Below are positions 1 through 22,275 of a stretch of 64,000 nt of DNA, in pieces. The notes under the pieces were generated by a model. It saw only the letters and a list, made by a program, of their open reading frames with translations, made no database searches and was not told the origin of the DNA. Numbering within the stretch: the stretch's first letter is position 1; the number at the start of each line of letters is the position of its first letter. A program made the translations under genes and the position numbers. Origin of the DNA: Auanema rhodensis (lineage: Eukaryota; Animalia; Nematoda); NCBI GenBank assembly GCA_964057225.1, contig OZ059896.1, positions 5,642,001-5,706,000 of the forward strand, in the 5' to 3' direction.

Positions 1-3000
1 GACAAAAATTTTTTCCAAAAATTTCAAAATAATTTAGCAAAAAGTAGATGTTTTTAGATTGCTTTTTTCAAGGCAAAAACGATGGACAATGTGATTCAAC
101 GAAAAAATTAATTCTTCAGGGTGAAAATCGAGGATATAAGTGTGAACTTATATCAGTTGATATCTCGGTGCATTTTCAAGCTAGCGCAAATCTGATAGTA
201 CAGATCGACGCAGCTTAACAATCCGCATCGAATGCACTATACTACATTGAGAAACGCTTAGTACAAAAATTAGTTATGATCGTTTGAAAAATGATGCATT
301 AGTGTATGTTGAGTTTCCATGTACACTCAAAATTGCTTCCAAAAACATTTTGACAAAACTTTTTTCGAAAAATTTCAAAATAATTTAGCAAAAAGTAGAT
401 GTTTTTAGATTCCTTTTTTCAAGGCAAAAACGATGGACAATGTTATTCAACGAAAAAATTAATTCTTCAGGGTGAAAATCGAGGATATAAGTGTGAACAT
501 ATATCAGTTGATATCTCGGTGCATTTTTAAGCTAGCGCAAATCTGATAACACAGATCGACGCAGCTTAAAAATCCGCATCGAATGCACTAAACTACATTG
601 AGAAAAGCTTAATACAAAAATTAGTTATGATCGTTTGAAAAATGATGCATTAGTGTATGTTGAGTTTCCATGTACACTCAAAATTGCTTCCAAAAACATT
701 TTGACAAAAATTTTTTCGAAAAATTTCAAGATAATTTAGCAAAAAGTAGATGTTTTTAGATTCCTTTTTCAAGGCAAAAACGATGGACAATGTTATTCAA
801 CGAAAAAATTAATTCTTCAGGGTGAAAATCGAGGATATAAGTGTGAACTTATATCAGTTGATATCTCGGTGCATTTTCAAGCTAGCGCAAATCTGATAGT
901 ACAGATCGACGCAGCTTAAAAATCCGCATCGAATGCACTAAACTACATTGAGAAAAGCTTAATACAAAAATTAGTTATGATCGTTTGAAAAATGATGCAT
1001 TAGTGTATGTTGAGTTTCCATGTACACTCAAAATTGCTTCCAAAAACATTTTGACAAAACTTTTTTCGAAAAATTTCAAAATAATTTAGCAAAAAGTAGA
1101 TGTTTCTAGATTCCTTTTTTCAAGGCAAAAACGATGGACAATGTTATTCAACGAAAAAATTAATTCTTCAGGGTGAAAATCGAGGATATAAGTGTGAACT
1201 TATATCAGTTGATATCTCGGTGCATTTTTAAGCTAGCGCAAATCTGATAACACAGATCTACGCAGCTTAAAAATCCGCATCGAATGCACTAAACTACATT
1301 GAGAAAAGCTTAATACAAAAATTAGTTATGATCGTTTGAAAAATGATGCATTAGTGTATGTTGAGTTTCCATGTACACTCAAAATTGCTTCCAAAAACAT
1401 TTTGACAAAACTTTTTTCGAAAAATTTCAAAATAATTTAGCAAAAAGTAGATGTTTCTAGATTCCTTTTTTCAAGGCAAAAACGATGGACAATGTTATTC
1501 AACGAAAAAATTAATTCTTCAGGGTGAAAATCGAAGATATAGGTGTGAACTTATATCAGTTGATATCTCGGTGCATTTTTAAGCTAGCGCAAATCTGATA
1601 ACACAGATCTACGCAGCTTAAAAATCCGCATCGAATGCACTATACTACATTGAGAAACGCTTAGTACAAAAATTAGTTATGATCGTTTGAAAAATGATGC
1701 ATTAGTGTATGTTGAGTTTCCATGTACACTCAAAATTGCTTCCAAAAACATTTTGACAAAAATTTTTTCGAAAAATTTCAAGATAATTTAGCAAAAAGTA
1801 GATGTTTTTAGATTCCTTTTTTCAAGGCAAAAACGATGGACAATGTTATTCAACGAAAAAATTAATTCTTCAGGGTGAAAATCGAGGATATAAGTGTGAA
1901 CTTATATCAGTTGATATCTCGGTGCATTTTCAAGCTAGCGCAAATCTGATAGTACAGATCGACGCAGCTTAAAAATCCGCATCGAATGCACTAAACTACA
2001 TTGAGAAAAGCTTAATACAAAAATTAGTTATGATCGTTTGAAAAATGATGCATTAGTGTATGTTGAGTTTCCATGTACACTCAAAATTGCTTCCAAAAAC
2101 ATTTTGACAAAACTTTTTTCGAAAAATTTCAAAATAATTTAGCAAAAAGTAGATGTTTTTAGATTCCTTTTTTCAAGGCAAAAACGATGGACAATGTTAT
2201 TCAACGAAAAAATTAATTCTTCAGGGTGAAAATCGAGGATATAAGTGTGAACATATATCAGTTGATATCTCGGTGCATTTTCAAGCTAGCGCAAATCTGA
2301 TAGTACAGATCGACGCAGCTTAAAAATCCGCATCGAATGCACTAAACTACATTGAGAAAAGCTTAATACAAAAATTAGTTATGATCGTTTGAAAAATGAT
2401 GCATTAGTGTATGTTGAGTTTCCATGTACACTCAAAATTGCTTCCAAAAACATTTTGACAAAACTTTTTTCGAAAAATTTCAAAATAATTTAGCAAAAAG
2501 TAGATGTTTCTAGATTCCTTTTTTCAAGGCAAAAACGATGGACAATGTTATTCAACGAAAAAATTAATTCTTCAGGGTGAAAATCGAGGATATAAGTGTG
2601 AACTTATATCAGTTGATATCTCGGTGCATTTTTAAGCTAGCGCAAATCTGATAACACAGATCTACGCAGCTTAAAAATCCGCATCGAATGCACTAAACTA
2701 CATTGAGAAAAGCTTAATACAAAAATTAGTTATGATCGTTTGAAAAATGATGCATTAGTGTATGTTGAGTTTCCATGTACACTCAAAATTGCTTCCAAAA
2801 ACATTTTGACAAAACTTTTTTCGAAAAATTTCAAAATAATTTAGCAAAAAGTAGATGTTTCTAGATTCCTTTTTTCAAGGCAAAAACGATGGACAATGTT
2901 ATTCAACGAAAAAATTAATTCTTCAGGGTGAAAATCGAGGATATAAGTGTGAACTTATATCAGTTGATATCTCGGTGCATTTTTAAGCTAGCGCAAATCT

Positions 3001-6000
3001 GATAACACAGATCTACGCAGCTTAAAAATCCGCATCGAATGCACTAAACTACATTGAGAAAAGCTTAATACAAAAATTAGTTATGATCGTTTGAAAAATG
3101 ATGCATTAGTGTATGTTGAGTTTCCATGTACACTCAAAATTGCTTCCAAAAACATTTTGACAAAACTTTTTTCGAAAAATTTCAAAATAATTTAGCAAAA
3201 AGTAGATGTTTTTAGATTCCTTTTTTCAAGGCAAAAACGATGGACAATGTTATTCAACGAAAAAATTAATTCTTCAGGGTGAAAATCGAGGATATAAGTG
3301 TGAACTTATATCAGTTGATATCTCGGTGCATTTTTAAGCTAGCGCAAATCTGATAGTACAGATCGACGCAGCTTAAAAATCCGCATCGAATGCACTAAAC
3401 TACATTGAGAAAAGCTTAATACAAAAATTAGTTATGATCGTTTGAAAAATGATGCATTAGTGTATGTTGAGTTTCCATGTACACTCAAAATTGCTTCCAA
3501 AAACATTTTGACAAAACTTTTTTCGAAAAATTTCAAAATAATTTAGCAAAAAGTAGATGTTTCTAGATTCCTTTTTTCAAGGCAAAAACGATGGACAATG
3601 TTATTCAACGAAAAAATTAATTCTTCAGGGTGAAAATCGAGGATATAAGTGTGAACTTATATCAGTTGATATCTCGGTGCATTTTTAAGCTAGCGCAAAT
3701 CTGATAACACAGATCTACGCAGCTTAAAAATCCGCATCGAATGCACTAAACTACATTGAGAAAAGCTTAATACAAAAATTAGTTATGATCGTTTGAAAAA
3801 TGATGCATTAGTGTATGTTGAGTTTCCATGTACACTCAAAATTGCTTCCAAAAACATTTTGACAAAACTTTTTTCGAAAAATTTCAAAATAATTTAGCAA
3901 AAAGTAGATGTTTCTAGATTCCTTTTTTCAAGGCAAAAACGATGGACAATGTTATTCAACGAAAAAATTAATTCTTCAGGGTGAAAATCGAAGATATAGG
4001 TGTGAACTTATATCAGTTGATATCTCGGTGCATTTTTAAGCTAGCGCAAATCTGATAACACAGATCTACGCAGCTTAAAAATCCGCATCGAATGCACTAT
4101 ACTACATTGAGAAACGCTTAGTACAAAAATTAGTTATGATCGTTTGAAAAATGATGCATTAGTGTATGTTGAGTTTCCATGTACACTCAAAATTGCTTCC
4201 AAAAACATTTTGACAAAACTTTTTTCGAAAAATTTCAAAATAATTTAGCAAAAAGTAGATGTTTCTAGATTCCTTTTTTCAAGGCAAAAACGATGGACAA
4301 TGTTATTCAACGAAAAAATTAATTCTTCAGGGTGAAAATCGAAGATAGAGGTGTGAACTTATATCAGTTGATATCTCGGTGCATTTTTAAGCTAGCGCAA
4401 ATCTGATAACACAGATCGACGCAGCTTAAAAATCCGCATCGAATGCACTATACTACATTGAGAAACGCTTAGTACAAAAATTAGTTATGATCGTTTGAAA
4501 AATGATGCATTAGTGTATGTTGAGTTTCCATGTACACTCAAAATTGCTTCCAAAAACATTTTGACAAAAATTTTTTCGAAAAATTTCAAGATAATTTAGC
4601 AAAAAGTAGATGTTTTTAGATTCCTTTTTTCAAGGCAAAAACGATGGACAATGTTATTCAACGAAAAAATTAATTCTTCAGGGTGAAAATCGAGGATATA
4701 AGTGTGAACATATATCAGTTGATATCTCGGTGCATTTTTAAGCTAGCGCAAATCTGATAACACAGATCGACGCAGCTTAAAAATCCGCATCGAATGCACT
4801 AAACTACATTGAGAAAAGCTTAATACAAAAATTAGTTATGATCGTTTGAAAAATGATGCATTAGTGTATGTTGAGTTTCCATGTACACTCAAAATTGCTT
4901 CCAAAAACATTTTGACAAAAATTTTTTCGAAAAATTTCAAGATAATTTAGCAAAAAGTAGATGTTTTTAGATTCCTTTTTTTCAAGGCAAAAACGATGGA
5001 CAATGTTATTCAACGAAAAAATTAATTCTTCAGGGTGAAAATCGAGGATATAAGTGTGAACTTATATCAGTTGATATCTCGGTGCATTTTCAAGCTAGCG
5101 CAAATCTGATAATACAGATCGACGCAGCTTAAAAATCCGCATCGAATGCACTAAACTACATTGAGAAAAGCTTAATACAAAAATTAGTTATGATCGTTTG
5201 AAAAATGATGCATTAGTGTATGTTGAGTTTCCATGTACACTCAAAATTGCTTCCAAAAACATTTTGACAAAACTTTTTTCGAAAAATTTCAAAATAATTT
5301 AGCAAAAAGTAGATGTTTCTAGATTCCTTTTTTCAAGGCAAAAACGATGGACAATGTTATTCAACGAAAAAATTAATTCTTCAGGGTGAAAATCGAGGAT
5401 ATAAGTGTGAACTTATATCAGTTGATATCTCGGTGCATTTTTAAGCTAGCGCAAATCTGATAACACAGATCTACGCAGCTTAAAAATCCGCATCGAATGC
5501 ACTAAACTACATTGAGAAAAGCTTAATACAAAAATTAGTTATGATCGTTTGAAAAATGATGCATTAGTGTATGTTGAGTTTCCATGTACACTCAAAATTG
5601 CTTCCAAAAACATTTTGACAAAACTTTTTTCGAAAAATTTCAAAATAATTTAGCAAAAAGTAGATGTTTCTAGATTCCTTTTTTCAAGGCAAAAACGATG
5701 GACAATGTTATTCAACGAAAAAATTAATTCTTCAGGGTGAAAATCGAAGATATAGGTGTGAACTTATATCAGTTGATATCTCGGTGCATTTTCAAGCTAG
5801 CGCAAATCTGATAGTACAGATCGACGCAGCTTAAAAATCCGCATCGAATGCACTATACTACATTGAGAAACGCTTAATACAAAAATTAGTTATGATCGTT
5901 TGAAAAATGATGCATTAGTGTATGTTGAGTTTCCATGTACACTCAAAATTGCTTCCAAAAACATTTTGACAAAAATTTTTTCGAAAAATTTCAAAATAAT

Positions 6001-7371
6001 TTAGCAAAAAGTAGATGTTTTTAGATTCCTTTTTTCAAGGCAAAAACGATGGACAATGTTATTCAACGAAAAAATTAATTCTTCAGGGTGAAAATCGAGG
6101 ATATAAGTGTGAACTTATATCAGTTGATATCTCGGTGCATTTTCAAGCTAGCGCAAATCTGATAGTACAGATCGACGCAGCTTAAAAATCCGCATCGAAT
6201 GCACTATACTACATTGAGAAACGCTTAATACAAAAATTAGTTATGATCGTTTGAAAAATGATGCATTAGTGTATGTTGAGTTTCCATGTACACTCAAAAT
6301 TGCTTCCAAAAACATTTTGACAAAAATTTTTTCGAAAAATTTCAAGATAATTTAGCAAAAAGTAGATGTTTTTAGATTCCTTTTTTCAAGGCAAAAACGA
6401 TGGACAATGTTATTCAACGAAAAAATTAATTCTTCAGGGTGAAAATCGAGGATATAAGTGTGAACTTATATCAGTTGATATCTCGGTGCATTTTCAAGCT
6501 AGCGCAAATCTGATAGTACAGATCGACGCAGCTTAAAAATCCGCATCGAATGCACTAAACTACATTGAGAAAAGCTTAATACAAAAATTAGTTATGATCG
6601 TTTGAAAAATGATGCATTAGTGTATGTTGAGTTTCCATGTACACTCAAAATTGCTTCCAAAAACATTTTGACAAAACTTTTTTCGAAAAATTTCAAAATA
6701 ATTTAGCAAAAAGTAGATGTTTCTAGATTCCTTTTTTCAAGGCAAAAACGATGGACAATGTTATTCAACGAAAAAATTAATTCTTCAGGGTGAAAATCGA
6801 GGATATAGGTGTGAACTTATATCAGTTGATATCTCGGTGCATTTTTAAGCTAGCGCAAATCTGATAACACAGATCGACGCAGCTTAAAAATCCGCATCGA
6901 ATGCACTATATTACATTGAGAAAAGCTAAATACAAAAATTAGTTATGATCGTTTGAAAAATGATGCATTAGTGTATGTTGAGTTTCCATGTACACTCAAA
7001 ATTGCTTCCAAAAACATTTTGACAAAAATTTTTTCCAAAAATTTCAAAATAATTTAGCAAAAAGTAGATGTTTTTAGATTGCTTTTTTCAAGGCAAAAAC
7101 GATGGACAATGTAATTCAACGAAAAAAATAATTCTTCAGGGTGAAAATCGAGGATATAAGTGTGAACTTATATCAGTTGATATCTCGGTGCATTTTCAAG
7201 CTAGCGCAAATCTGATAGTACAGATCGACGCAGCTTAAAAATCCGCATCGAATGCACTATATTACATTGAGAAACGCTTAGTACAAAAATTAGTTATGAT
7301 CGTTTGAAAAATGATGCATTAGTGTATGTTGAGTTTCCATGTACACTCAAAATTGCTTCCAAAAACATTTT

Positions 7372-10300
7372 GACAAAAATTTTTTCGAAAAATTTCAAGA
7401 TAATTTAGCAAAAAGTAGATGTTTTTAGATTCCTTTTTTCAAGGCAAAAACGATGGACAATGTTATTCAACGAAAAAATTAATTCTTCAGGGTGAAAATC
7501 GAGGATATAAGTGTGAACATATATCAGTTGATATCTCGGTGCATTTTTAAGCTAGCGCAAATCTGATAACACAGATCGACGCAGCTTAAAAATTCGCATC
7601 GAATGCACTAAACTACATTGAGAAAAGCTTAATACAAAAATTAGTTATGATCGTTTGAAAAATGATGCATTAGTGTATGTTGAGTTTCCATGTACACTCA
7701 AAATTGCTTCCAAAAACATTTTGACAAAAATTTTTTCGAAAAATTTCAAGATAATTTAGCAAAAAGTAGATGTTTTTAGATTCCTTTTTTCAAGGCAAAA
7801 ACGATGGACAATGTTATTCAACGAAAAAATTAATTCTTCAGGGTGAAAATCGAGGATATAAGTGTGAACTTATATCAGTTGATATCTCGGTGCATTTTCA
7901 AGCTAGCGCAAATCTGATAGTACAGATCGACGCAGCTTAAAAATCCGCATCGAATGCACTAAACTACATTGAGAAAAGCTTAATACAAAAATTAGTTATG
8001 ATCGTTTGAAAAATGATGCATTAGTGTATGTTGAGTTTCCATGTACACTCAAAATTGCTTCCAAAAACATTTTGACAAAACTTTTTTCGAAAAATTTCAA
8101 AATAATTTAGCAAAAAGTAGATGTTTCTAGATTCCTTTTTTCAAGGCAAAAACGATGGACAATGTTATTCAACGAAAAAATTAATTCTTCAGGGTGAAAA
8201 TCGAGGATATAGGTGTGAACTTATATCAGTTGATATCTCGGTGCATTTTTAAGCTAGCGCAAATCTGATAACACAGATCTACGCAGCTTAAAAATCCGCA
8301 TCGAATGCACTAAACTACATTGAGAAAAGCTTAATACAAAAATTAGTTATGATCGTTTGAAAAATGATGCATTAGTGTATGTTGAGTTTCCATGTACACT
8401 CAAAATTGCTTCCAAAAACATTTTGACAAAACTTTTTTCGAAAAATTTCAAAATAATTTAGCAAAAAGTAGATGTTTCTAGATTCCTTTTTTCAAGGCAA
8501 AAACGATGGACAATGTTATTCAACGAAAAAATTAATTCTTCAGGGTGAAAATCGAAGATATAGGTGTGAACTTATATCAGTTGATATCTCGGTGCATTTT
8601 CAAGCTAGCGCAAATCTGATAGTACAGATCGACGCAGCTTAAAAATCCGCATCGAATGCACCATACTACATTGAGAAACGCTTAATACAAAAATTAGTTA
8701 TGATCGTTTGAAAAATGATGCATTAGTGTATGTTGAGTTTCCATGTACACTCAAAATTGCTTCCAAAAACATTTTGACAAAAATTTTTTCGAAAAATTTC
8801 AAAATAATTTAGCAAAAAGTAGATGTTTTTAGATTCCTTTTTTCAAGGCAAAAACGATGGACAATGTTATTCAACGAAAAAATTAATTCTTCAGGGTGAA
8901 AATCGAGGATATAAGTGTGAACTTATATCAGTTGATATCTCGGTGCATTTTCAAGCTAGCGCAAATCTGAAAGTACAGATCGACGCAGCTTAAAAATCCG
9001 CATCGAATGCACTATACTACATTGAGAAACGCTTAGTACAAAAATTAGTTATGATCGTTTGAAAAATGATGCATTAGTGTATGTTGAGTTTCCATGTACA
9101 CTCAAAATTGCTTCCAAAAACATTTTGACAAAAATTTTTTCGAAAAATTTCAAGATAATTTAGCAACAAGTAGATGTTTTTAGATTCCTTTTTTCAAGGC
9201 AAAAACGATGGACAATGTTATTCAACGAAAAAATTAATTCTTCAGGGTGAAAATCGAGGATATAGGTGTGAACTTATATCAGTTGATATCTCGGTGCATT
9301 TTCAAGCTAGCGCAAATCTGATAACACAGATCGACGCAGCTTAAAAATCCGCATCGAATGCACTATATTACATTGAGAAACGCTTAGTACAAAAATTAGT
9401 TATGATCGTTTGAAAAATGATGCATTAGTGTATGTTGAGTTTCCATGTACACTCAAAATTGCTTCCAAAAACATTTTGACAAAAATTTTTTCGAAAAATT
9501 TCAAGATAATTTAGCAAAAAGTAGATGTTTTTAGATTCCTTTTTTCAAGGCAAAAACGATGGACAATGTTATTCAACGAAAAAATTAATTCTTCAGGGTG
9601 AAAATCGAGGATATAAGTGTGAACATATATCAGTTGATATCTCGGTGCATTTTTAAGCTAGCGCAAATCTGATAACACAGATCGACGCAGCTTAAAAATT
9701 CGCATCGAATGCACTAAACTACATTGAGAAAAGCTTAATACAAAAATTAGTTATGATCGTTTGAAAAATGATGCATTAGTGTATGTTGAGTTTCCATGTA
9801 CACTCAAAATTGCTTCCAAAAACATTTTGACAAAAATTTTTTCGAAAAATTTCAAGATAATTTAGCAAAAAGTAGATGTTTTTAGATTCCTTTTTTCAAG
9901 GCAAAAACGATGGACAATGTTATTCAACGAAAAAATTAATTCTTCAGGGTGAAAATCGAGGATATAAGTGTGAACTTATATCAGTTGATATCTCGGTGCA
10001 TTTTCAAGCTAGCGCAAATCTGATAGTACAGATCGACGCAGCTTAAAAATCCGCATCGAATGCACTAAACTACATTGAGAAAAGCTTAATACAAAAATTA
10101 GTTATGATCGTTTGAAAAATGATGCATTAGTGTATGTTGAGTTTCCATGTACACTCAAAATTGCTTCCAAAAACATTTTGACAAAACTTTTTTCGAAAAA
10201 TTTCAAAATAATTTAGCAAAAAGTAGATGTTTCTAGATTCCTTTTTTCAAGGCAAAAACGATGGACAATGTTATTCAACGAAAAAATTAATTCTTCAGGG

Positions 10301-11583
10301 TGAAAATCGAGGATATAGGTGTGAACTTATATCAGTTGATATCTCGGTGCATTTTTAAGCTAGCGCAAATCTGATAACACAGATCTACGCAGCTTAAAAA
10401 TCCGCATCGAATGCACTAAACTACATTGAGAAAAGCTTAATACAAAAATTAGTTATGATCGTTTGAAAAATGATGCATTAGTGTATGTTGAGTTTCCATG
10501 TACACTCAAAATTGCTTCCAAAAACATTTTGACAAAACTTTTTTCGAAAAATTTCAAAATAATTTAGCAAAAAGTAGATGTTTCTAGATTCCTTTTTTCA
10601 AGGCAAAAACGATGGACAATGTTATTCAACGAAAAAATTAATTCTTCAGGGTGAAAATCGAAGATATAGGTGTGAACTTATATCAGTTGATATCTCGGTG
10701 CATTTTCAAGCTAGCGCAAATCTGATAGTACAGATCGACGCAGCTTAAAAATCCGCATCGAATGCACCATACTACATTGAGAAACGCTTAATACAAAAAT
10801 TAGTTATGATCGTTTGAAAAATGATGCATTAGTGTATGTTGAGTTTCCATGTACACTCAAAATTGCTTCCAAAAACATTTTGACAAAAATTTTTTCGAAA
10901 AATTTCAAAATAATTTAGCAAAAAGTAGATGTTTTTAGATTCCTTTTTTCAAGGCAAAAACGATGGACAATGTTATTCAACGAAAAAATTAATTCTTCAG
11001 GGTGAAAATCGAGGATATAAGTGTGAACTTATATCAGTTGATATCTCGGTGCATTTTCAAGCTAGCGCAAATCTGAAAGTACAGATCGACGCAGCTTAAA
11101 AATCCGCATCGAATGCACTATACTACATTGAGAAACGCTTAGTACAAAAATTAGTTATGATCGTTTGAAAAATGATGCATTAGTGTATGTTGAGTTTCCA
11201 TGTACACTCAAAATTGCTTCCAAAAACATTTTGACAAAAATTTTTTCGAAAAATTTCAAGATAATTTAGCAACAAGTAGATGTTTTTAGATTCCTTTTTT
11301 CAAGGCAAAAACGATGGACAATGTTATTCAACGAAAAAATTAATTCTTCAGGGTGAAAATCGAGGATATAGGTGTGAACTTATATCAGTTGATATCTCGG
11401 TGCATTTTCAAGCTAGCGCAAATCTGATAACACAGATCGACGCAGCTTAAAAATCCGCATCGAATGCACTATATTACATTGAGAAAAGCTAAATACAAAA
11501 ATTAGTTATGATCGTTTGAAAAATGATGCATTAGTGTATGTTGAGTTTCCATGTACACTCAAAATTGCTTCCAAAAACATTTT
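7372..11583 (+). repeat. Tandem 6-monomer (2,106-bp) higher-order duplication
   Basis: Rare variants AAAAATTCGC, GCACCATAC (8662/10768), CTGAAAGTAC and GCAACAAG each recur at +2106. Confidence 0.88.
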
Positions 11584-12889
11584 GACAAAAATTTTTTCGA
11601 AAAATTTCAAGATAATTTAGCAAAAAGTAGATGTTTTTAGATTCCTTTTTTCAAGGCAAAAACGATGGACAATGTAATTCAACGAAAAAATTAATTCTTC
11701 AGGGTGAAAATCGAGGATATAAGTGTGAACTTATATCAGTTGATATCTCGGTGCATTTTCAAGCTAGCGCAAATCTGATAGTACAGATCGACGCAGCTTA
11801 AAAATCCGCATCGAATGCACTATACTACATTGAGAAACGCTTAGTACAAAAATTAGTTATGATCGTTTGAAAAATGATGCATTAGTGTATGTTGAGTTTC
11901 CATGTACACTCAAAATTGCTTCCAAAAACATTTTGACAAAACTTTTTTCGAAAAATTTCAAGATAATTTAGCAACAAGTAGATGTTTTTAGATTCCTTTT
12001 TTCAAGGCAAAAACGATGGACAATGTTATTCAACGAAAAAATTAATTCTTCAGGGTGAAAATCGAGGATATAGGTGTGAACTTATATCAGTTGATATCTC
12101 GGTGCATTTTTAAGCTAGCGCAAATCTGATAACACAGATCGACGCAGCTTAAAAATCCGCATCGAATGCACTATATTACATTGAGAAAAGCTAAATACAA
12201 AAATTAGTTATGATCGTTTGAAAAATGATGCATTAGTGTATGTTGAGTTTCCATGTACACTCAAAATTGCTTCCAAAAACATTTTGACAAAAATTTTTTC
12301 GAAAAATTTCAAGATAATTTAGCAAAAAGTAGATGTTTTTAGATTCCTTTTTTCAAGGCAAAAACGATGGACAATGTAATTCAACGAAAAAATTAATTCT
12401 TCAGGGTGAAAATCGAGGATATAAGTGTGAACTTATATCAGTTGATATCTCGGTGCATTTTCAAGCTAGCGCAAATCTGATAGTACAGATCGACGCAGCT
12501 TAAAAATCCGCATCGAATGCACTATACTACATTGAGAAACGCTTAGTACAAAAATTAGTTATGATCGTTTGAAAAATGATGCATTAGTGTATGTTGAGTT
12601 TCCATGTACACTCAAAATTGCTTCCAAAAACATTTTGACAAAACTTTTTTCGAAAAATTTCAAGATAATTTAGCAACAAGTAGATGTTTTTAGATTCCTT
12701 TTTTCAAGGCAAAAACGATGGACAATGTTATTCAACGAAAAAATTAATTCTTCAGGGTGAAAATCGAGGATATAGGTGTGAACTTATATCAGTTGATATC
12801 TCGGTGCATTTTTAAGCTAGCGCAAATCTGATAACACAGATCGACGCAGCTTAAAAATCCGCATCGAATGCACTATATTACATTGAGAA

Positions 12890-12893
12890 AAGC
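12890..12893. other. Target-site duplication AAGC, left copy
   Basis: Empty monomers read GAGAAAAGCTAAATAC. Here the sequence is GAGAAAAGC[TG...CA]AAGCTAAATAC. Confidence 0.92.
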
Positions 12894-13292
12894 TGTAATA
12901 TCCTTAAGTTGGATATTAATATTCCATGATTGACCCTTAGATTGATGTGTTGTAAAAGAAACAATAAGATTTGAGGAAGAGAGAAAGATTTATTATAAAT
13001 AAAAAACATTTAAACAATAAACAAATAAAGATAAAGATAAGTCCGCCAACTGAAGATTCAGTTGAATGGCAAGCTTATATAGCGAATGTTATCAGCATTT
13101 TCCACGAAAGGTTATAAGTTGTCAATGACAATTATAACTATCTCGGAAAATGCTGAAGCTGCAAAATATAACTGATAACATAATACACTAAGACAAGAAA
13201 CTAGAATTATAAAATATAAAATATAAAACACAGAATAAAGAAATACATAAAAATTATAGAAAGAATAAAGTACATAATTATAAAGTATAACA
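12894..13292 (-). repeat. 3' LTR (399 bp)
   Basis: Direct repeat of 21873-22271 (offset 8979). Lies 57 nt past the ORF stop codon. Confidence 0.97.
12989..12994 (-). terminator. Putative polyadenylation signal AATAAA in the 3' LTR
   Basis: TTTATT on +, ~60 nt downstream (minus sense) of the predicted start site, consistent with a U3-R-U5 layout. Confidence 0.55.
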
Positions 13293-13305
13293 TGCTACCG
13301 CTCTT
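13293..13305 (-). promoter_or_regulatory. Putative atypical polypurine tract (AAGAGCGGTAGCA)
   Basis: Lies immediately 5' of the 3' LTR on the minus strand. Purine-rich (10/13) but interrupted by pyrimidines. Confidence 0.55.
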
Positions 13306-13349: not shown

Positions 13350-16300
13350 TCATAATGTTGCAGCAAGCTTTTTGATGAGATCCTTATGTACTTTTCTCAT
13401 CTTTCCTTGACTCATTTCCAATTCCACATATGAGTTGTATACGCCTGTAATTTTGAACGGTCCATTATAAGTGGGTCGCAATTTGCCGTGAATCGTCATA
13501 TCCTTCAATAGTACCATTTCACCTATTTCAAATATACGTGATGCTATTCGGTTACTATTATTCAGCCGATTTTGTTGTTCAATTGATTTTAATTGAATTT
13601 TTTCTTGAATAGAATCCCAGGTATTTTTCCGGTTCTCATTTCTTTCCAATAATTCGTCATCTTCAGGAGAATTTAGATGAGGTTGTCCTGGTAATTGACG
13701 GTCCATAGGTAGGCGTGCGTCTCTTCCAAATAAAGCAATGTATGGGCTGATTCCGGTAGTTGTACTTGGGATTGTATTTAACGCGAATGTGATTTTAGGT
13801 AATTGTGAGGCCCATTGAGAGACACGGTTTTCAGCACAAGTGGATAAACATTCCTGGATGGTTCGATGTAGTCGTTCCACTTGACCGTTTGTATTTTTGT
13901 GATATGGCAGAGAGAAGGTTTGTACAATTCCAAATTCGTTGCACATTAACTTGAATTCTTTAGATATAAAATTTCCTCCATTGTCAGACACGATGCTCAC
14001 TGGTGGTCCAAAAATGAAGACGAAATTCGTCAGGAACTTTCGGACTGTTTCTTCGGCATTCTGTGTGCGTAAAGGTATGCTCGTTATCCATTTCGAAAAA
14101 GCATCTTGAATAGAAAGAATATATTTAAATCCATTAGTGCTAGGGGAAAAAGGTCCTGTCACATCCATATGAATCCTATCAAATGGTTTTTGTGGGGTAA
14201 CAAACTTTCCATATGGTTCTCTCGTTGTATCATGTTGATTTATTTTCCTTTTTGCGCATGTCAGGCATTGGCTGACGATCTCTTTCGCATCTTCCATCAT
14301 ATTTGTCCAATGGAATCTTCTTGATAATGCTGCATGTGTTCTTTTGATTCCTTGATGCGCTCCAATTCTTGCGTCTTCATGAAAAAGTTTCGCAAGTACT
14401 TGATTCAATGTCTTTTGTTTTGGAATCATAATCCTTGGAGAAAGATATTGTTTGTTAGGTCGAGCATGTAAAACTCCGTCGATAACAATATATCTATCGC
14501 TATTAATCTGTTTAGGTTGTTCCGTTAACATATCAGCAATAGTTTCCTTAATCCATGGTGTTCCTTGTTGTAACTGAATTAGTTTGTCGGTATCCAGAGT
14601 TTCCACATTGGTTACATTTATGAGATAGTTGATGGTTTCTTGGATATCCGTTAAACTTGTTGTTGGCGTTGTCTTCTGTAGCTTCGGTTTAGGACCATCG
14701 TTAGCTTCGTTGCCTATGTATCTGGATAGTGCATCACATACACTATTCATACGTCCTGGACGGTACATAATCACAATATCATATTCCTGGATCATTAACT
14801 GATATTTCGCTAGTCTTCCAATAAGATCTCTTCTACTCATTAGACTGGTTAGTGGTCGATGATCCGTTATTAGCTTAGTTGACGTGCCTAAAACATATGT
14901 GCGAAATTGTTGTAATGCGTAGACGAGTGCCAAAGCTTCTAATTCGATAGGTGGGTATTTTCTTTCTGTAGGTGAGAGCTTCCTACTTGCGAACGCAACA
15001 GGGTGTAATCCATTTCCTGTATCTTGTAGTAAGACTGCTCCAATTGCAATAGTACTAGCGTCACTTTCAATAACAAAAGGTGCTCCATTTGTTGGTGGCT
15101 TCAGAACTGGTGCTGTGCATAGAGCTTTCTTGAGAGTCTCGAATGCTTTTTCACGTTCTTCCGTCCATTCGAAATCTTGATCCTTGTGTGTGAGTTGATA
15201 CAACGGTTCGGCTATTTTGGCGTAGTCTCTGATGAATCGCCGAAAATAATTTGTCATTCCAAGGAATGAACGAATAGCGGTGACCGTTTTAGGAGTTGGA
15301 AATTTCATAACGGCTGTAATTTTTGATGGATCAGGTTGTATTCCATCACGACCAATTATAAATCCAAGAAATTTAACTTGTGTAGCTGCAAATTTGCATT
15401 TACTTAGTTTTGCTTTCATTCCTAATCCTTGTAAAGCTTGTAACACTTCTTCTATATCCTCCAGATGTTGTTCAGCTGTGTTTGATATAATGAGTAGATC
15501 ATCCAGATAAACAAAAAGTCGACATTTTACTTGATTTTGCAAATAGCGAACAGCTGATTGAAATGTATGTGGAGCTCCACAGAGACCCATCGGCATTCTG
15601 CAATATTGATAAACTCCTGATGAGGTCACAAATGCAGTGAGGTGACGGTCTTCTTCACGTAAAGGAATTTGAAAAAATCCCGATACGAGATCGATGTTTG
15701 TGAAGTATCGAGCTCCTGCAGTGCTGTCGATTATTTCTGGTATATGAGGAATAGAATAAGTCTGTTTCTGTGTGACACTATTGAGTGCACGGAAGTCCGT
15801 TACAAAGCGGAATGAGTTGTCTTTCTTCTTGACTAAGACGACTGGACTTGTAAAACTTGATGTTGATGTTTCTATTACTCCTTGGTCCAGCATTTCTTTT
15901 ACTTGACGTTCAACTTCATCCTGTTTACCCAAAGGAACTCGATATGATCGAGATTTGGGCAGGTCCATATCGGTTCTCAAAGTGATTGAATGTTCTATTG
16001 GTCCTTTGAATAATCCAATGTTCCGATCTTCGTTAAAAAAAGCATTTTTGAATCTTCTCAACATAGTTTTGAGATTTTGACGTTGATTTTTAGATAGATC
16101 CGTTGATTCGAATTTTAAGTTATCGAAAGGATTCTTCTCAAAAATAGGCAATTTATCTGACCAATCAGCTTCTGGTGGAATATAGTCCGGTATATGTGGG
16201 ATTCCAATTTCTTCTGCTATTTTTCCTTTTCCAATAATGGTGTTTCCTGTTAACTTCACCTCATAATTTGCTGTATTGATGGCGAATATTGTGAGTGGTG

Positions 16301-19300
16301 AAGTCTTGATAGCAGTAGGTGTGAATTGAATAGGTCCATTTCCACATCGTATAAGAGCGTATTGTTTTGGTTGTAGTTCTTTTGCCAATTGTAGACGAAT
16401 CATAGCTTTAGTTCGGGGTGGAATAATAGATTCTCTAATGTTTATAATTGAAACGGTGTCTGAACTGATGCGAAAGCTCTTCTGGTTAGCGGATAATAAT
16501 GGTAGAAAATGGTTTCCAACTATTAATTGCTTGCGTAGAGCTTGTAGAGAAGTTGTTATTCCTTTTTCTTCTAATGCTTTCATGATGTCCAAACCAAGTA
16601 ACATTTCAGTAGGACAATGTTTATCCTCAGAGATTAAAAATGTGTGTGAAAGATGGTATCCAGCAATAACAATGTCCAACGTTATTGTACCCAGAAAGTT
16701 GAATATTGATCCATTTGCTGCGGTGGCAGAGATTTTAGTTGAGTTGAAATTCTCTTTTCCTAAATAGCGTACTGATGATTCCTTCAAATATGAAACAGAT
16801 GCTCCGCTATCCCATAAAGCTACGAGTCCTCTGCCTTCTGCTTCGATTCTTATATATGGGAGTTCTCTTTTGTTTGTTGCACAGCATCCAACAAAAGGTA
16901 TAATAATAGGAATAAAAGTGATGACAGTAGGAAAATATCTTCGAATAGTTTCATCGTCGGCTGGAACATCGATGTCAGCGTTGAGTAGTTCGTGTTGTTC
17001 AACTGCATTCACATTTAAGATAGGAACTTTCTCTTTGATATAAGATACAACAATAATGTATAATGCTGATCCAAAGATTAATATAACTATCATAACACCT
17101 GCAGAGATAAACATTCTGTTGAGGGATCCAGCAAAGAAATCAACTCCTCGTTCCCATAGTGATGATGCAATATTTTGAGTAGAACTAAAAAGTTCGTTAC
17201 TTTTTGTAAACCATTCTGATAAGCCTGGCAAATTCGCTTGATTCGTGATAACTCGTAGAAAAGTTCTATGAGGATTGGTAGCGAAAATGTGTCCATATGT
17301 TAAGCTTATTGTTCTAACTAAGTTTTCATCGGTGATATTTTCATAAAGATTTCTTTGTGAAAATCGAATGGCTGCTAGATCGGGATACTGATCTGAACCA
17401 ATGTTTAAAGCAGTTACGTTTGTAACTCCGTTGAGGGATTTCCATTCTCCATCCTCTTTCCATATATCATTTTCTACTGTTTCACATGGAATTTCAGTTC
17501 CATATGCTTCCAAATCTGCTGAATCTTGAGGTGCAAAGTAGAGGCGGTCATCATCCGTGATGACGGGTGTTTCTAAATAACACTTATCCTTGTATGTGTG
17601 GTTGCGATAAATGTGAATTGGTTCTATTGGCTGACAGGTTGAAACCCGAATAAGATTCCGTCCAATTATTCGAGCCACTACATCATCTCGTTGCATAATA
17701 GATCGGATAGCAATCGTAGGATTGATATTAAATATAGCTTGCCATGTCTTAATAAGTTCAAGTTGAGCATGACATATGCTGTGATGTTGATGATGAAATT
17801 CTTCGACCAGTATGGTTCTCATTCGTTCAAATCCATAGTTGAGTTTGTTGATGGTAGTTAATGCATCTCGATGTCGAAGTATAGTATTCTGGTGATCAGT
17901 TAAGTGAGTGCCGAATAATTCTTGAGCTTTCTCTATGCTTCCAATCATGGGTTGCATTGATGTCATCCCTTGAATAGTACTAATTGTTTGTTTTGTAGTA
18001 GATGATGTATTTACAACAGGTTTTGAGGTAGCACTAAGAAATCGTGCAGTTGGCGTAGTTTTAGTGGTGATAGAGCGACTGAATACTCTTTTTGTAATCT
18101 CTTCAGGTGCTGGTTTTGAAAACCATGACATTAAATCAGTTAATTGTTTAGCGTCAATATTGATGTTACGGCTGTAGAGATCTTCTTTATTCGAAGGCAT
18201 CGGTATTCCAAAATTGGTTTCTCGGTTTCTGAGTGTCCAGTTATCCAACAGCTTTAATTTCATTTCATATACTTGATCTTTCACTTGTCGTTGCATAAAA
18301 TGACTATGAAAGAACAGTTTCATTCGATAATATTCTATCAGTTGAGGTTGAGAATACTGATAGCGTAGTTCACGAAGTAATTCTTTTGCTTTATATACCA
18401 CAGAACGTGGATCTCCAAATGTGAAGTTGAGATGGTTTTGATATACTGTGAATATCAAAAATTCGAGTGGTGGCACATATTCTGTTTCGGATAAGATTGC
18501 AGGTATTTGTATCAATTCCCATAATTTATCTCTTGCAACCGAAATTGTAGAATTGCCTGGTTTAACTATTCTTTTTATATAATTGATAGGAAGTCGGTGT
18601 GCTAGTTGACCGATGACAAAACTAGGCTCCATTTGTTCGATCCACATTTTTGTAATCATCTTGCTTTCTTCTCCTCCTAGAGCATGTAGTAAGAGAATAT
18701 TCGGATCGCGGAAGTCTTTTAAATTTGCCCAGTAATCTATAGTATGATCAGTAATGTTCAAAACATGGACAGCTGACAGCAAAAATTGATGATATCGAGC
18801 AATAACAGTCAGGTTCTGATATTCGTTGCTAACTGATTGATAGTGATACCAGTTATGAATATATCGTATGGTATTTCCGCCAGACGTGACAGTATATCTA
18901 GCAAACGGTAGATCCAATATTTGAATAGGAGTTAACTTATATTCCATTTCTGAGCGAAATGACGCAATTAAGGATGAATTTGTTGAACGTTTATAGCGTT
19001 GGCGTGAAGGATCCATTTGATTATCCAAATAACTTGTTAGATCCAGTAGAGAATATGCATGCGGATAATCAATAAACGAGACAAGAGTCTCAGTAGTGGA
19101 TTCAAAAATTGGTGAAGAAAAACAAGATTGAGTTGTAGTAGATGCTGAGGTGTTGGCTAAGACAAGTGCTGTTTCTAGACTTGATATTAGCAGTGTTTGA
19201 TCTCCAAGTATTCCATACAGAGGTCCAATACGTGTGTATTGGCATGGTGCTCGGGGTGTGGGTGGTTTCCAAACTACTGAACCATCTCCAAATGTACAGC

Positions 19301-20807
19301 TTCCCATTTGAGCTTTACAGCCTTCGGCGTTGACAATTAAGTCAGATACAATAGTATTGTCCTTTAAATTTGTAATAACTCCTCGCTCCATCACAAATTG
19401 AGTTAAGTTGGCGCATTGAGTAAAACTGAAGAAACGTTCCGGTTCATATACTGGCTTAGGAGCTTCATATGTAAGTGGATTAGCGCTCAACAGTTTTTCA
19501 TTTTTCCATTTCTTGTCTCGAGCAGCTATACGGCATTCTTCTACAGATACATATCCATTACCAATGATGGTGTCATTGCTTTCTCGGAACCAAAATTGAT
19601 CCGTTACACATAATCGATAGATGCGTGTATAACATTTCCACGCTTCCCATGTTACGACGGTTTGTTTAGGAATGAACAATTCAACGTTAACTTGATGAGC
19701 TTGTTGAATTGCTTTCCGTTGGCATCCTGTTATCTCTGGTGGTGTCATCAGAATTCCTCCTTTATGAGCTAAACATAGTTGATATGAAGCATTCACAGTG
19801 GGAAGCAGAAATGTGCAGATTATTGTTGTGAGCAGGAATGGTAATGCAATAGTATTTATATTGAATCGAGGTTTCCATCGTCGTTGATTGCCTTGATTCT
19901 CTCTTGGATAATTGTCGCGATTATTCCTGGCAAAGTTGTCTCGATTTTCTCTTTGATAATTGTTGCGAGGTTCTCTCGAATGGTGATTACTCTCCATTGA
20001 GTAGTTGTTTCCATAATTTTGTCGAGGGCCAGAGTTCCTGCTGAATTTATTTTTGAAATTCTTCCAAGGGTTTCTTGAATTGTTGCCATTGTTCCGTTCG
20101 AAATCTCGTGGCTGCTGATGGTTCCTTTGGTTCCTATTTTCCTTCATGGTGATCTTCTGAACTGCAGAGATCAACTCTTGCATAGTTGAGTTTTCTTCAT
20201 GCTGTTTTTTATAGTTAGCACGAATTGCTTCTTCAAAACGTGCTGTCCTTTTTGCTTCCTCATAAGTCTTCGGATCTTTTCCTTGAACAATTATGCCTAA
20301 ATCAGCGTTCAATCCATTTAAGAAAGCTGATCTTAATATGAGCTCTCTTTCTCGATCAGTTGGGCTCATAATACTGGAAGCCATTTCTTCCAAGTATGAG
20401 GCAAACTGAGTAACAGTTTTCTCTCCTTGCGTCGAGCGTAGCAACTTTGCGATCGTGAAATTCCTTTCCGTGGCAGGGCAAAGTAACTCTGCCAATTGTG
20501 AAACAAGGTCTTTCCAAGGTCCTCGTTCACGAATTTCGGAAGGAATCGAGTTATATGCAGAGATCGCAGAATCATTCTGCTGAAGCAGCAGAGGAAGAAG
20601 AAAAATTCTTTCAATTACAGAAAGTCCCGCAGCATTCGCGAATCGGTTAAATATATCGATGTACGATCGAAAGCTTCGGCTACCATCGTATTTGGGGCAG
20701 TGTGGACTGCCTAGAACTTTTGTTAAGTTTTTGGTCAACTCTGGAGATGCCATTAAATTAGGCGTTTCCAGAGTTGAATCTCTGTTTGATTGCTCATGTG
20801 GTCTCAT
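13350..20807 (-). CDS. Gag-Env-Pol polyprotein (2,485 aa from the first ATG; frame is open to 21053)
   Basis: Single frame with no stop or frameshift, ending in TGA at 13350-13352. The track start at 20876 is a TTG. The first in-frame ATGs are at 20807 (MRPHEQ) and 20753 (MASPEL). Confidence 0.93.
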   Translation of the reverse strand: MRPHEQSNRDSTLETPNLMASPELTKNLTKVLGSPHCPKYDGSRSFRSYIDIFNRFANAAGLSVIERIFLLPLLLQQNDSAISAYNSIPSEIRERGPWKDLVSQLAELLCPATERNFTIAKLLRSTQGEKTVTQFASYLEEMASSIMSPTDRERELILRSAFLNGLNADLGIIVQGKDPKTYEEAKRTARFEEAIRANYKKQHEENSTMQELISAVQKITMKENRNQRNHQQPRDFERNNGNNSRNPWKNFKNKFSRNSGPRQNYGNNYSMESNHHSREPRNNYQRENRDNFARNNRDNYPRENQGNQRRWKPRFNINTIALPFLLTTIICTFLLPTVNASYQLCLAHKGGILMTPPEITGCQRKAIQQAHQVNVELFIPKQTVVTWEAWKCYTRIYRLCVTDQFWFRESNDTIIGNGYVSVEECRIAARDKKWKNEKLLSANPLTYEAPKPVYEPERFFSFTQCANLTQFVMERGVITNLKDNTIVSDLIVNAEGCKAQMGSCTFGDGSVVWKPPTPRAPCQYTRIGPLYGILGDQTLLISSLETALVLANTSASTTTQSCFSSPIFESTTETLVSFIDYPHAYSLLDLTSYLDNQMDPSRQRYKRSTNSSLIASFRSEMEYKLTPIQILDLPFARYTVTSGGNTIRYIHNWYHYQSVSNEYQNLTVIARYHQFLLSAVHVLNITDHTIDYWANLKDFRDPNILLLHALGGEESKMITKMWIEQMEPSFVIGQLAHRLPINYIKRIVKPGNSTISVARDKLWELIQIPAILSETEYVPPLEFLIFTVYQNHLNFTFGDPRSVVYKAKELLRELRYQYSQPQLIEYYRMKLFFHSHFMQRQVKDQVYEMKLKLLDNWTLRNRETNFGIPMPSNKEDLYSRNINIDAKQLTDLMSWFSKPAPEEITKRVFSRSITTKTTPTARFLSATSKPVVNTSSTTKQTISTIQGMTSMQPMIGSIEKAQELFGTHLTDHQNTILRHRDALTTINKLNYGFERMRTILVEEFHHQHHSICHAQLELIKTWQAIFNINPTIAIRSIMQRDDVVARIIGRNLIRVSTCQPIEPIHIYRNHTYKDKCYLETPVITDDDRLYFAPQDSADLEAYGTEIPCETVENDIWKEDGEWKSLNGVTNVTALNIGSDQYPDLAAIRFSQRNLYENITDENLVRTISLTYGHIFATNPHRTFLRVITNQANLPGLSEWFTKSNELFSSTQNIASSLWERGVDFFAGSLNRMFISAGVMIVILIFGSALYIIVVSYIKEKVPILNVNAVEQHELLNADIDVPADDETIRRYFPTVITFIPIIIPFVGCCATNKRELPYIRIEAEGRGLVALWDSGASVSYLKESSVRYLGKENFNSTKISATAANGSIFNFLGTITLDIVIAGYHLSHTFLISEDKHCPTEMLLGLDIMKALEEKGITTSLQALRKQLIVGNHFLPLLSANQKSFRISSDTVSIINIRESIIPPRTKAMIRLQLAKELQPKQYALIRCGNGPIQFTPTAIKTSPLTIFAINTANYEVKLTGNTIIGKGKIAEEIGIPHIPDYIPPEADWSDKLPIFEKNPFDNLKFESTDLSKNQRQNLKTMLRRFKNAFFNEDRNIGLFKGPIEHSITLRTDMDLPKSRSYRVPLGKQDEVERQVKEMLDQGVIETSTSSFTSPVVLVKKKDNSFRFVTDFRALNSVTQKQTYSIPHIPEIIDSTAGARYFTNIDLVSGFFQIPLREEDRHLTAFVTSSGVYQYCRMPMGLCGAPHTFQSAVRYLQNQVKCRLFVYLDDLLIISNTAEQHLEDIEEVLQALQGLGMKAKLSKCKFAATQVKFLGFIIGRDGIQPDPSKITAVMKFPTPKTVTAIRSFLGMTNYFRRFIRDYAKIAEPLYQLTHKDQDFEWTEEREKAFETLKKALCTAPVLKPPTNGAPFVIESDASTIAIGAVLLQDTGNGLHPVAFASRKLSPTERKYPPIELEALALVYALQQFRTYVLGTSTKLITDHRPLTSLMSRRDLIGRLAKYQLMIQEYDIVIMYRPGRMNSVCDALSRYIGNEANDGPKPKLQKTTPTTSLTDIQETINYLINVTNVETLDTDKLIQLQQGTPWIKETIADMLTEQPKQINSDRYIVIDGVLHARPNKQYLSPRIMIPKQKTLNQVLAKLFHEDARIGAHQGIKRTHAALSRRFHWTNMMEDAKEIVSQCLTCAKRKINQHDTTREPYGKFVTPQKPFDRIHMDVTGPFSPSTNGFKYILSIQDAFSKWITSIPLRTQNAEETVRKFLTNFVFIFGPPVSIVSDNGGNFISKEFKLMCNEFGIVQTFSLPYHKNTNGQVERLHRTIQECLSTCAENRVSQWASQLPKITFALNTIPSTTTGISPYIALFGRDARLPMDRQLPGQPHLNSPEDDELLERNENRKNTWDSIQEKIQLKSIEQQNRLNNSNRIASRIFEIGEMVLLKDMTIHGKLRPTYNGPFKITGVYNSYVELEMSQGKMRKVHKDLIKKLAATL
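13353..14490 (-). other. Integrase (HHCC, DD35E, GPF motif; no chromodomain)
   Basis: FH...AHQG...CLTC; MDVTGP (D 14163-14165), SDNG (D 13983-13985), VER (E 13875-13877) with 35 residues between the second D and E; YNGPFKI. Confidence 0.96.
14715..15075 (-). other. RNase H (approximate limits)
   Basis: ESDAS..IGAVL, ELEALA, TDHRPL, DALSR. Confidence 0.95.
15300..16030 (-). other. Reverse transcriptase (approximate limits)
   Basis: SPVVLVKKKD, DFRALN, IDLVSGFFQI, TAF, MPMGL, YLDD (15498-15509), KCKF, FLG. Confidence 0.97.
16497..16862 (-). other. Retropepsin aspartic protease
   Basis: ALWDSGASVSYL (D at 16809-16811), ATAANGS flap, MLLGLDIM. Confidence 0.92.
17037..19787 (-). other. env: Envelope glycoprotein, class III fusion-protein-like (aa 364-1280)
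   Basis: AWKC..C..FWF..SVEEC (rhabdovirus-G-like fusion domain pattern). Furin site RYKR|S at 18987-18998. KLNYGF..IC..Q..W..INPT..VVARIIG..C..CY..P (gB/chuvirus-like helix and crown pattern). About 13 N-x-S/T sequons. TM MFISAGVMIVILIFGSALYIIVVSYI at 17037-17114. Confidence 0.82.
19788..19850 (-). other. Internal signal peptide for Env (aa 343-363, IALPFLLTTIICTFLLPTVNA|S)
   Basis: Basic n-region (RRWKPR), hydrophobic core, then Pro and V-N-A at positions -3 to -1, followed by a Cys-rich domain with glycosylation sequons. Confidence 0.8.
19851..20807 (-). other. gag: Gag domain (capsid-like region plus N/R/Q-rich basic tail)
   Basis: PKYDGSRSFRSYIDIFNRFA and QGEKTVTQFASYL...FLNGL resemble retrotransposon capsid motifs. 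No CCHC knuckle. Confidence 0.8.
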
Positions 20808-21859
20808 GTTGAGTAGGAGCTTCAGAGGTAGTTTTTCGCGCTGGGGAGTTTTTTCTTTTTTCGGTGTTACAGCCAAGTGTGTTGGCGTTTTTTCGTCGTC
20901 CGATGGACTTAAATCGTTGTCAAACGAGTCGTCACTATCGGGAAAAGGAAATCGAGAAATACGATTTCTCTTGTCTCTTAATCTTTGAGAGGTACGGAAA
21001 GTCGTATCCGTATAATTATTCTTGGAGGTTGCCGTTTTGGAAAAGGAGGAAAGTCAGAACAATCTACAATGTAAAATAGTGGAATAAGTTAGTAAACAAG
21101 ATAAGAATATGAATAGTTAATAGTGAATAAATTAGTGAATAACGTGAAAAAAAAAATCGAAGAAAAAAAAGATATATAATAATATGGGTTGAAGATTAAT
21201 TAATTAATGAACTCATACAAAAACAAACTATAGAGAGGAAAAAAAAAAGTGAATATAATTAATTGTTAAGATGATGATAGGATATGATTATGTGACAATG
21301 TGATTCATAAATTAGAGAAGTGAGTATGGCGGACAAATCAAAATCTCAATTGTTACTGAATAACAATGAATTACCAAACAAGGCATCTTTCAAATTCCAA
21401 AGTCTTTGTTTCAACTTGAATCAACAATCAAAAAATTATGAGAGGAAGGTTTAAATTCAAATATGACAAATGATACAGCGGATGTTATTTTCTTACAGTG
21501 GCCATTCTGTTAGTACAAACTTGTAATCTTTATCAAAAATATCGCAAATTGACTTTATTAAGGTCCAATTTTGCTTATATCAAACAGCTTTTCCATTTCC
21601 AAAAAATATATATTTTTCGCCACAATGAAAAATCAAAAGTACAACTGCGCAGAAACAAAAAGAAATCGAAAAGTTGGCCAATTCAGTATCTCACCCTTGC
21701 GCAAAATATCAACCCTGTTTATTAAAAAAATGAGTGAGACCCTTCGTACTGAATTGGAAAGAGAGGTGGTAGCCCAGGGAAATAGCTCAAAAAAATTCTC
21801 TTTAACTGAATGATAATTCATAATTTAATCGAGTTCGAAAAATCGTAAAAAGATTCTAA

Positions 21860-21872
21860 GGTGGAACCTCCA
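21860..21872 (-). promoter_or_regulatory. Primer-binding site for tRNA-Gln (TGGAGGTTCCACC)
   Basis: Abuts the 5' LTR and begins TGG. The + strand reads GGTGGAACCTCCA, matching the 3' end (including CCA) of metazoan tRNA-Gln as I recall it (...CTCGGTGGAACCT-CCA), 13 nt. Confidence 0.88.
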
Positions 21873-22271
21873 TGTAATATCCTTAAGTTGGATATTAATA
21901 TTCCATGATTGACCCTTAGATTGATGTGTTGTAAAAGAAACAATAAGATTTGAGGAAGAGAGAAAGATTTATTATAAATAAAAAACATTTAAACAATAAA
22001 CAAATAAAGATAAAGATAAGTCCGCCAACTGAAGATTCAGTTGAATGGCAAGCTTATATAGCGAATGTTATCAGCATTTTCCACGAAAGGTTATAAGTTG
22101 TCAATGACAATTATAACTATCTCGGAAAATGCTGAAGCTGCAAAATATAACTGATAACATAATACACTAAGACAAGAAACTAGAATTATAAAATATAAAA
22201 TATAAAACACAGAATAAAGAAATACATAAAAATTATAGAAAGAATAAAGTACATAATTATAAAGTATAACA
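21873..22271 (-). repeat. 5' LTR (399 bp)
   Basis: TGTAATATCC...GTATAACA on +, with imperfect terminal inverted repeat TGTAATA/TGTTATA. Directly followed on the minus strand by the PBS. I saw no mismatch versus 12894-13292. Confidence 0.97.
22027..22060 (-). promoter_or_regulatory. LTR core promoter: TATATAA (22060-22054) and Inr-like TCAGTT (A at 22030)
   Basis: Minus strand reads TATATAAGCTTGCCATTCAACTGAATCTTCAGTT. The TATA begins exactly 30 nt upstream of the A of TCAGTT. The copy in the 3' LTR is at 13048-13081. Confidence 0.6.
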
Positions 22272-22275
22272 AAGC
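22272..22275. other. Target-site duplication AAGC, right copy
   Basis: AAGC follows ...TATAACA directly and precedes TAAATAC, which resumes the satellite. Confidence 0.92.

Follow-up and report, generated by a model that had tools for sequence, protein, structure and literature searches.

How can a single retroelement polyprotein place a capsid, a fusion glycoprotein and replication enzymes each on the right side of a membrane when the envelope gene lies in frame between gag and the protease? The question is raised by an element in the window, the whole 64-kb stretch of DNA analysed here, which a first-pass annotation had described as one stop-free Gag-signal-Env-transmembrane-protease-reverse transcriptase-RNase H-integrase frame. 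That description was borne out: the frame, to which no strand had been assigned, is a minus-strand reading frame of 2485 residues with its Pfam domains in the stated order, and 13350..20807 is the only ATG open reading frame of at least 150 residues in the window. The residue numbers given at first are all exactly 23 too high and fit a count that begins at a TTG lying 23 codons before the ATG. Our answer, which we hold to be probably right, is that this is an intact and recent Ty3/gypsy element belonging to the GAG-ENV-POL type already published for nematodes. Its polyprotein is predicted to pass through the ER membrane twice, and host and viral proteases probably cleave it into capsid, a fusion protein of the gB type and the enzymes of Pol. 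The features are collected in Table 1.

The element is a real, recent and intact Ty3/gypsy LTR insertion. It forms a 9378-bp insert that is the sole interruption of a 351-bp satellite array (window 1-12893 and 22272-64000), for which we found 155 anchor matches and a mean pairwise identity of 97.4% over 144 units. Identity at even lags is in slight excess (0.978 vs 0.974), a hint of a dimeric unit. Joining the two flanks restores the satellite unit at an overlap of 4 bp, with 98 matches compared to none at overlaps of 0-3 and 5-7, and joints skipping 9382 bases occur in three DNA runs. Nine sequencing runs from three studies contain at least half of the sampled words of the element, the best of which may be the source sample. 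Since three public DNA runs cover the element in 30 of 30 bins, and none of the 11 indels listed from them falls inside the reading frame, the Gag-Env-Pol frame is no assembly artefact. Assignment to Ty3/gypsy (Metaviridae) follows from the protease-RT-RNase H-integrase order, a gypsy-type RT, paired LTRs, a primer-binding site and a target-site duplication. The nearest named proteins are rhabditid, and the tRNA-Gln primer-binding site and introns of 43-46 nt are compatible with a nematode host. The primer-binding site is the reverse complement of the Gln 12-mer given for Clat_4 and Ctro_1 in Supplementary file 1 of PMC13524379.

Table 1. Features of the element and its surroundings, in window coordinates (aa, residues of the polyprotein).
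Feature	Position	Strand	Description
5' LTR	21873..22271	-	399 bp, TGT...ACA; 399/399 identical to 3' LTR
3' LTR	12894..13292	-	399 bp; short purine-rich tract before it, about 13293-13305
Target-site duplication, 4 bp	12890..12893; second copy 22272-22275	+	satellite unit restored by 4-bp overlap only
Primer-binding site	21861..21872	-	abuts 5' LTR; complementary to last 12 nt of tRNA-Gln
Leader	20808..21860	-	1 kb, AT-rich; short upstream reading frames, possible splice acceptors; last 82 codons open in the main frame
Gag-Env-Pol frame	13350..20807	-	single frame, 2485 aa, stop-free; ATG start
Gag	19863..20807	-	aa 1-315; aligns with Gag of P0003 and P0004; Pfam match weak
INTI motif	19851..19862	-	aa 316-319; predicted protease site ahead of signal peptide
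Internal signal peptide, predicted	19788..19850	-	aa 320-340; hydropathy 2.1-2.3; 4 K/R before, 1 after
Env ectodomain	17133..19787	-	aa 341-1225; predicted class III fusion-protein fold
RYKR furin-type site	aa 604-607 of Env		predicted
Helical insert in Env	18198..18890	-	about aa 640-870, ~230 aa; no known family
Transmembrane anchor, predicted	17046..17114	-	aa 1232-1254; insertion score -1.8
Cytosolic tail, predicted	16935..17045	-	VNAV motif at aa 1266-1269, acidic linker
Proline-rich hydrophobic stretch	16878..16934	-	aa 1292-1310, before protease; insertion score +2.4
Aspartyl protease	16548..16877	-	DSGA, D1333
Reverse transcriptase and RNase H	14778..16010	-	YLDD at 1767
Integrase	13353..14420	-	HHCC, D2215, D2275 and VER motifs
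Spliced antisense RNA	13604..14090	+	over integrase end; one contig, depth 5, one run guessed to be RNA
Antisense introns	13621-13666, 13756-13798, 13918-13963	+	GT-AG

Pfam and hydropathy together give the layout Gag, signal peptide, Env, membrane anchor, protease, RT, RNase H and integrase. Retrotrans_gag is matched weakly at residues 87-167 (E 0.013) and Monjiviricetes_fusion above its cut-off at 969-1126 (E 1e-11), followed by the aspartyl protease (1321-1410), RT (1659-1818), RNase H (1881-2009) and integrase (2133-2303), with hydrophobic peaks at residues 315-340 and 1224-1259. Gag consists of a capsid-like part at about residues 30-200 and an Asn/Arg/Gln-rich basic region at 201-315, and inspection of its sequence revealed no CCHC knuckle. 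Some 100 residues between protease and RT (about 16158-16460, minus strand) are conserved in the relatives P0003 and P0004; judging by their pattern, they may have a dUTPase-like fold.

The alternative that survives best is that the long frame is rarely made whole, and that spliced genomic RNA gives rise to separate Gag, Env or Gag-Pol products. The frame stays open for 82 codons upstream of the ATG, to 21053, and this stretch (20808-21053, minus strand), which has no ATG of its own and is acidic and rich in Ser/Thr-Pro, may be joined to the N-terminus of Gag by splicing. Together with the possible acceptors in the leader it speaks for splicing, as does the precedent of Cer1, which has no stop between gag and pol and yet keeps used splice sites, CERV being made from spliced RNA (PMC10309623). 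In one RNA-like run, with coverage of only 8 of 30 bins, we found no sense-strand splice joint. Another point against splicing is that many relatives preserve the signal, the anchor and the motifs in frame. Elements of this type usually make Gag in excess, which does not agree with equal (1:1:1) yields of Gag, Env and Pol. Splicing would solve this problem, and we found no mechanism restoring an excess of Gag over Env and Pol. A pattern search near the Gag-Env and Env-protease junctions gave no in-frame slippery heptamer. On balance we regard splicing as unlikely to be the main route.

The arrangement proposed in the first-pass annotation, with Gag cytosolic, Env luminal and Pol cytosolic, is supported by comparison with relatives. 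A signal-like peak lies ahead of Env in 28 of the 32 proteins containing Gag as well as Env. In the region from Env to protease, the anchor scores below 0 in 37 of 42 proteins and a second segment below +1 in none, as judged from hydropathy and a crude insertion score. Because only one anchor is predicted between Env and protease in these 42 proteins, Pol is likely to be cytosolic. Lys and Arg residues are more numerous after the anchor than before it in 29 of the 42, and fewer in 7.

One stretch could upset this picture. The proline-rich residues 1292-1310, absent from the earlier description, are the most insertion-prone second segment of the 42 (+2.4) and rank third in insertion propensity across the whole polyprotein; the second stretch reaches a hydropathy of at least 1.6 in 8 of the 42. 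They are conserved in P0003, P0004, P0006, P0043 and P0192, strongly so in the subclade, and end in a Cys. In alphavirus polyproteins a marginal helix acts much like a topology control, and residues 1292-1310 could likewise be a marginal second membrane segment by which some chains send Pol to the lumen for disposal, topology then setting the ratio of structural proteins to enzymes. We consider this improbable, given the positive score and the three prolines. Moreover, most of the 42 proteins have a polar sequence at this position that resembles a [YF]xP motif in front of the protease, as would suit a portion of the protease precursor. From the sequence comparison, the stretch is likely not a membrane crossing, and a single anchor with cytosolic Pol is the arrangement that we prefer.

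Sites at which such a chain could be cut are suggested by a short motif, [IV]N[ATSNV][IVL]. Of 42 linkers between anchor and protease, 22 contain it (2.8 expected), and 17 of 32 proteins have it ahead of the signal (about 1 expected), though it was defined after three sequences had been seen, the proteins counted are related and about half lack it. By analogy to Ty3-type processing, it is likely to be the site of the element's own protease, present on both cytosolic flanks of Env. A furin-type site within Env is found in only 44 of 90 proteins. Neither Gag nor the tail has a PTAP, PPxY or YPxL motif.

That Env has a fusion-protein fold, as had been supposed, is supported by profile, Foldseek and VIA-align matches to gB. 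A profile of 64 Env sequences matches herpes gB (best E 4.5e-18) and rhabdovirus-type G. The structure model (mean pLDDT 73.5, pTM 0.53) matches gB in Foldseek (E 5e-10) and prefusion gB 9q9l in VIA-align (Z 9.5, rmsd 6.4 over 389 residues), as well as nyami-, rhabdo- and chu-like glycoproteins, with a Nyavirus glycoprotein at rank 4; whole-model TM-scores of the matches are low (0.15-0.28). A single-sequence search of the PDB gave no matches, and a word search with the Env region likewise gave none, though a HMMER search did find relatives. The model thus supports a class III fold resembling those of herpes gB and nyamiviruses. Class III fusion loops are expected to carry aromatic residues at hairpin tips, and two hairpin tips of the model have them. 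The label 'Cys-rich' given to the glycoprotein at first applies to both of its ends, with 10 Cys in residues 343-600 and 4 in 961-1225, and fails in the middle, where residues 601-960 have none.

Within this middle part lies a helical insert, to which no Pfam family, usable Atlas match or word-search match could be assigned. It is modelled with pLDDT mostly 70-95 within the whole Env, compared to 48 when modelled alone, and its structural matches are generic helices only (Z up to 5.2 for the low-confidence model alone, up to 6.5 for the whole model). The insert is shared with the Auanema protein P0041 (E 2.4e-7), is only faint in other relatives and is missing from P0003. The stretch after RYKR is about 350 residues long here, and the equivalent gap ranges from 27 to 529 residues across 66 proteins. 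An unrelated second family of long inserts occupies the same place in P0062, P0069, P0081, P0096, P0097, P0100, P0173, P0046 and P0050. From these sequences, the furin loop of Env looks like a hot spot for added domains.

Least probable is that Env is a passenger of an element that moves intracellularly without fusion: its in-frame position would by itself select against stops, which would kill Pol, and the Env differences in other runs (3 non-synonymous, 2 synonymous) are too few to weigh, but many species have retained the cysteines, the signal, the anchor and the class III fold at some 20-30% identity, and the aromatic tips are where fusion loops should be.

Protein searches also show that env is no one-off capture, as Env-before-Pol relatives share the order. 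The best whole-protein matches are Caenorhabditis polyproteins with the same domains in the same sequence. In the Env search, 222 proteins reached an E of 0.001 or better, of which the best 150 were used, and among the 188 proteins listed from both searches 46 carry Env ahead of a Pol domain on the same chain, while 16 have all three parts. Of 20 proteins looked up, a set that included the window's own protein, for which there was no match, those with names come from nematodes (Auanema, Caenorhabditis, Acrobeloides and Diploscapter), and P0041 is the best Env match among the matches listed (30% identity, E 1e-69). These relatives are gene predictions, some of them mis-joined, for instance P0006 with an EF-Tu-like domain and P0046 with two protease matches. 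The RT placement that had been proposed as a check agrees: in a quick tree of 53 rows, leaving out those with fewer than 180 RT residues, the window RT falls in a six-member clade (SH-aLRT 100) with P0003, P0004, P0006, P0049 and P0064, including Env-before-Pol proteins of C. remanei, C. auriculariae and C. japonica. The Env-before-RT proteins as a whole do not form one supported clade in this tree. Six of 14 long Env matches scanned are BEL/Pao polyproteins with Env at the end; a C-terminal Env of the same family is seen in P0070, P0105, P0112, P0114, P0172 and P0176. Such sharing points to an exchange of env between element superfamilies or to a shared source.

Sequencing runs revealed two further products of the locus or its copies. 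A joint from 13681 to 19935 was present in all four runs examined, three of them DNA and one RNA-like, so that an internally deleted copy exists as DNA. It has lost 13682-19934, with 6 nt shared between the ends, and retains the LTRs, the leader and most of gag, which is joined out of frame to the end of integrase. Two stop-making differences in the Gag region, at residues 14 and 227, occur in runs X2 and X3, unphased with the deletion; one of them is also found in X12 and neither in X1. A role for this copy as a Gag helper is doubtful given these differences, which argue for a dead passenger copy instead. The second product is an antisense RNA contig, which skips 43 and 46 bases and has one loose end. 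All three fit plus-strand GT-AG introns, a fit expected by chance at about 0.5% of placements before sliding is allowed for. In the part seen, this RNA has no stop-free stretch longer than 94 codons.

The route that we favour starts from the single stop-free frame, Gag-signal-Env-anchor-protease-RT-RNase H-integrase, that lies between identical LTRs. The signal at 320-340 would send Env to the lumen, leaving Gag cytosolic and tied to the membrane, and signal peptidase would free the Env N-terminus near residue 341. The anchor at 1232-1254 would then stop transfer, so that tail, protease, RT and integrase stay in the cytosol, with 1292-1310 predicted not to cross. Cuts by the element's protease at INTI and VNAV would detach Gag from the signal peptide and separate Pol from the tail of Env, and furin-type cleavage at RYKR would mature Env. 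Gag, Env and Pol would in this way start together at one membrane, where enveloped particles may form, probably for transfer from soma to germ line. Integration of this copy took place in a satellite array and made a 4-bp duplication. That Pol is packaged by its tether to the Env tail, as had been suggested, is a guess. A bolder version, to which we give little credence, has a flavivirus-like, rather than retrovirus-like, assembly in which capsid, fusogen and enzymes are brought together in advance at the ER as a single chain, the element's own protease cuts them loose at a pair of sites on either side of Env, the marginal segment before the protease is a subclade topology switch setting enzyme dosage, Env carries a new helical domain and the element is held in check by the spliced antisense RNA.

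Flavi- and alphavirus structural polyproteins, in which a capsid is followed by an internal signal and a luminal glycoprotein and which are cut by host and viral proteases, would work alike, but their proteins are unrelated, their fusogens are class II and they do not reverse transcribe. BEL/Pao elements with a class III env have an Env of the same family, but there it is C-terminal and the RT lies outside the Ty3/gypsy group; the element in the window has neither a Pao-type RT nor a C-terminal env. Insect errantiviruses of the Drosophila gypsy type, with gag-pol-env and an F-type env, differ in both order and fold. The nematode endogenous retroviruses (NERVs) of Sacco and colleagues reportedly have a continuous gag-env-pro-pol reading frame with a Nyamiviridae-like glycoprotein, and are said to carry extra reading frames for a small protein and an Upf1-like helicase. 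By that definition the continuous frame is present here, and the window has no second ATG reading frame of at least 150 residues. CRE_05815 (P0003), C. auriculariae P0004, C. brenneri P0192 and Auanema P0041 have the same order and junction motifs, at 35% identity along the alignment; the N-termini of P0003 and P0004 extend further than that of the window protein.

The first-pass annotation took this for a poorly described system, but the GAG-ENV-POL order in nematodes is already in print: Chary and Hayashi (eLife 2026; PMC13524379) report that nematode, bryozoan and flatworm errantiviruses carry a gB-type ENV as GAG-ENV-POL, list 36 such nematode elements and credit Sacco et al. 2022 (J Gen Virol 103:1739, PMID 35550022), whom they cite for non-canonical nematode ERVs with ENV before POL. 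Our element has what characterises the nematode members of these 'ancient errantiviruses', namely ENV between GAG and POL and an HSV/gB-type ectodomain between predicted signal and anchor, as well as LTRs and a tRNA-Gln primer-binding site, the latter given for 8 of the 11 Caenorhabditis rows among the 36 nematode rows. A 399-bp LTR at 8979-bp spacing is matched by none of the 17 nematode rows with LTR coordinates in PMC13524379, and 19 rows give none, so that the element itself may or may not be among them. The term 'gag-env-pol' appeared only in PMC13524379 within the literature found, and we found no paper on this processing or on such an antisense RNA in a search that left most subscription journals outside. 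Since the main text of PMC13524379 has no occurrence of 'polyprotein', 'fused' or 'frameshift', processing is not treated there. The layout is thus catalogued, while the threading, cutting and packaging of such a polyprotein lie outside that text. To it we add the single-anchor pattern, the motif on both cytosolic flanks of Env, the helical insert, the deleted DNA copy and the antisense RNA contig. As the copy is clean, with identical LTRs and predicted cut sites, it allows threading and processing to be tested. The element also bears on how class III fusogens act without partner glycoproteins, which PMC13524379 calls unknown.
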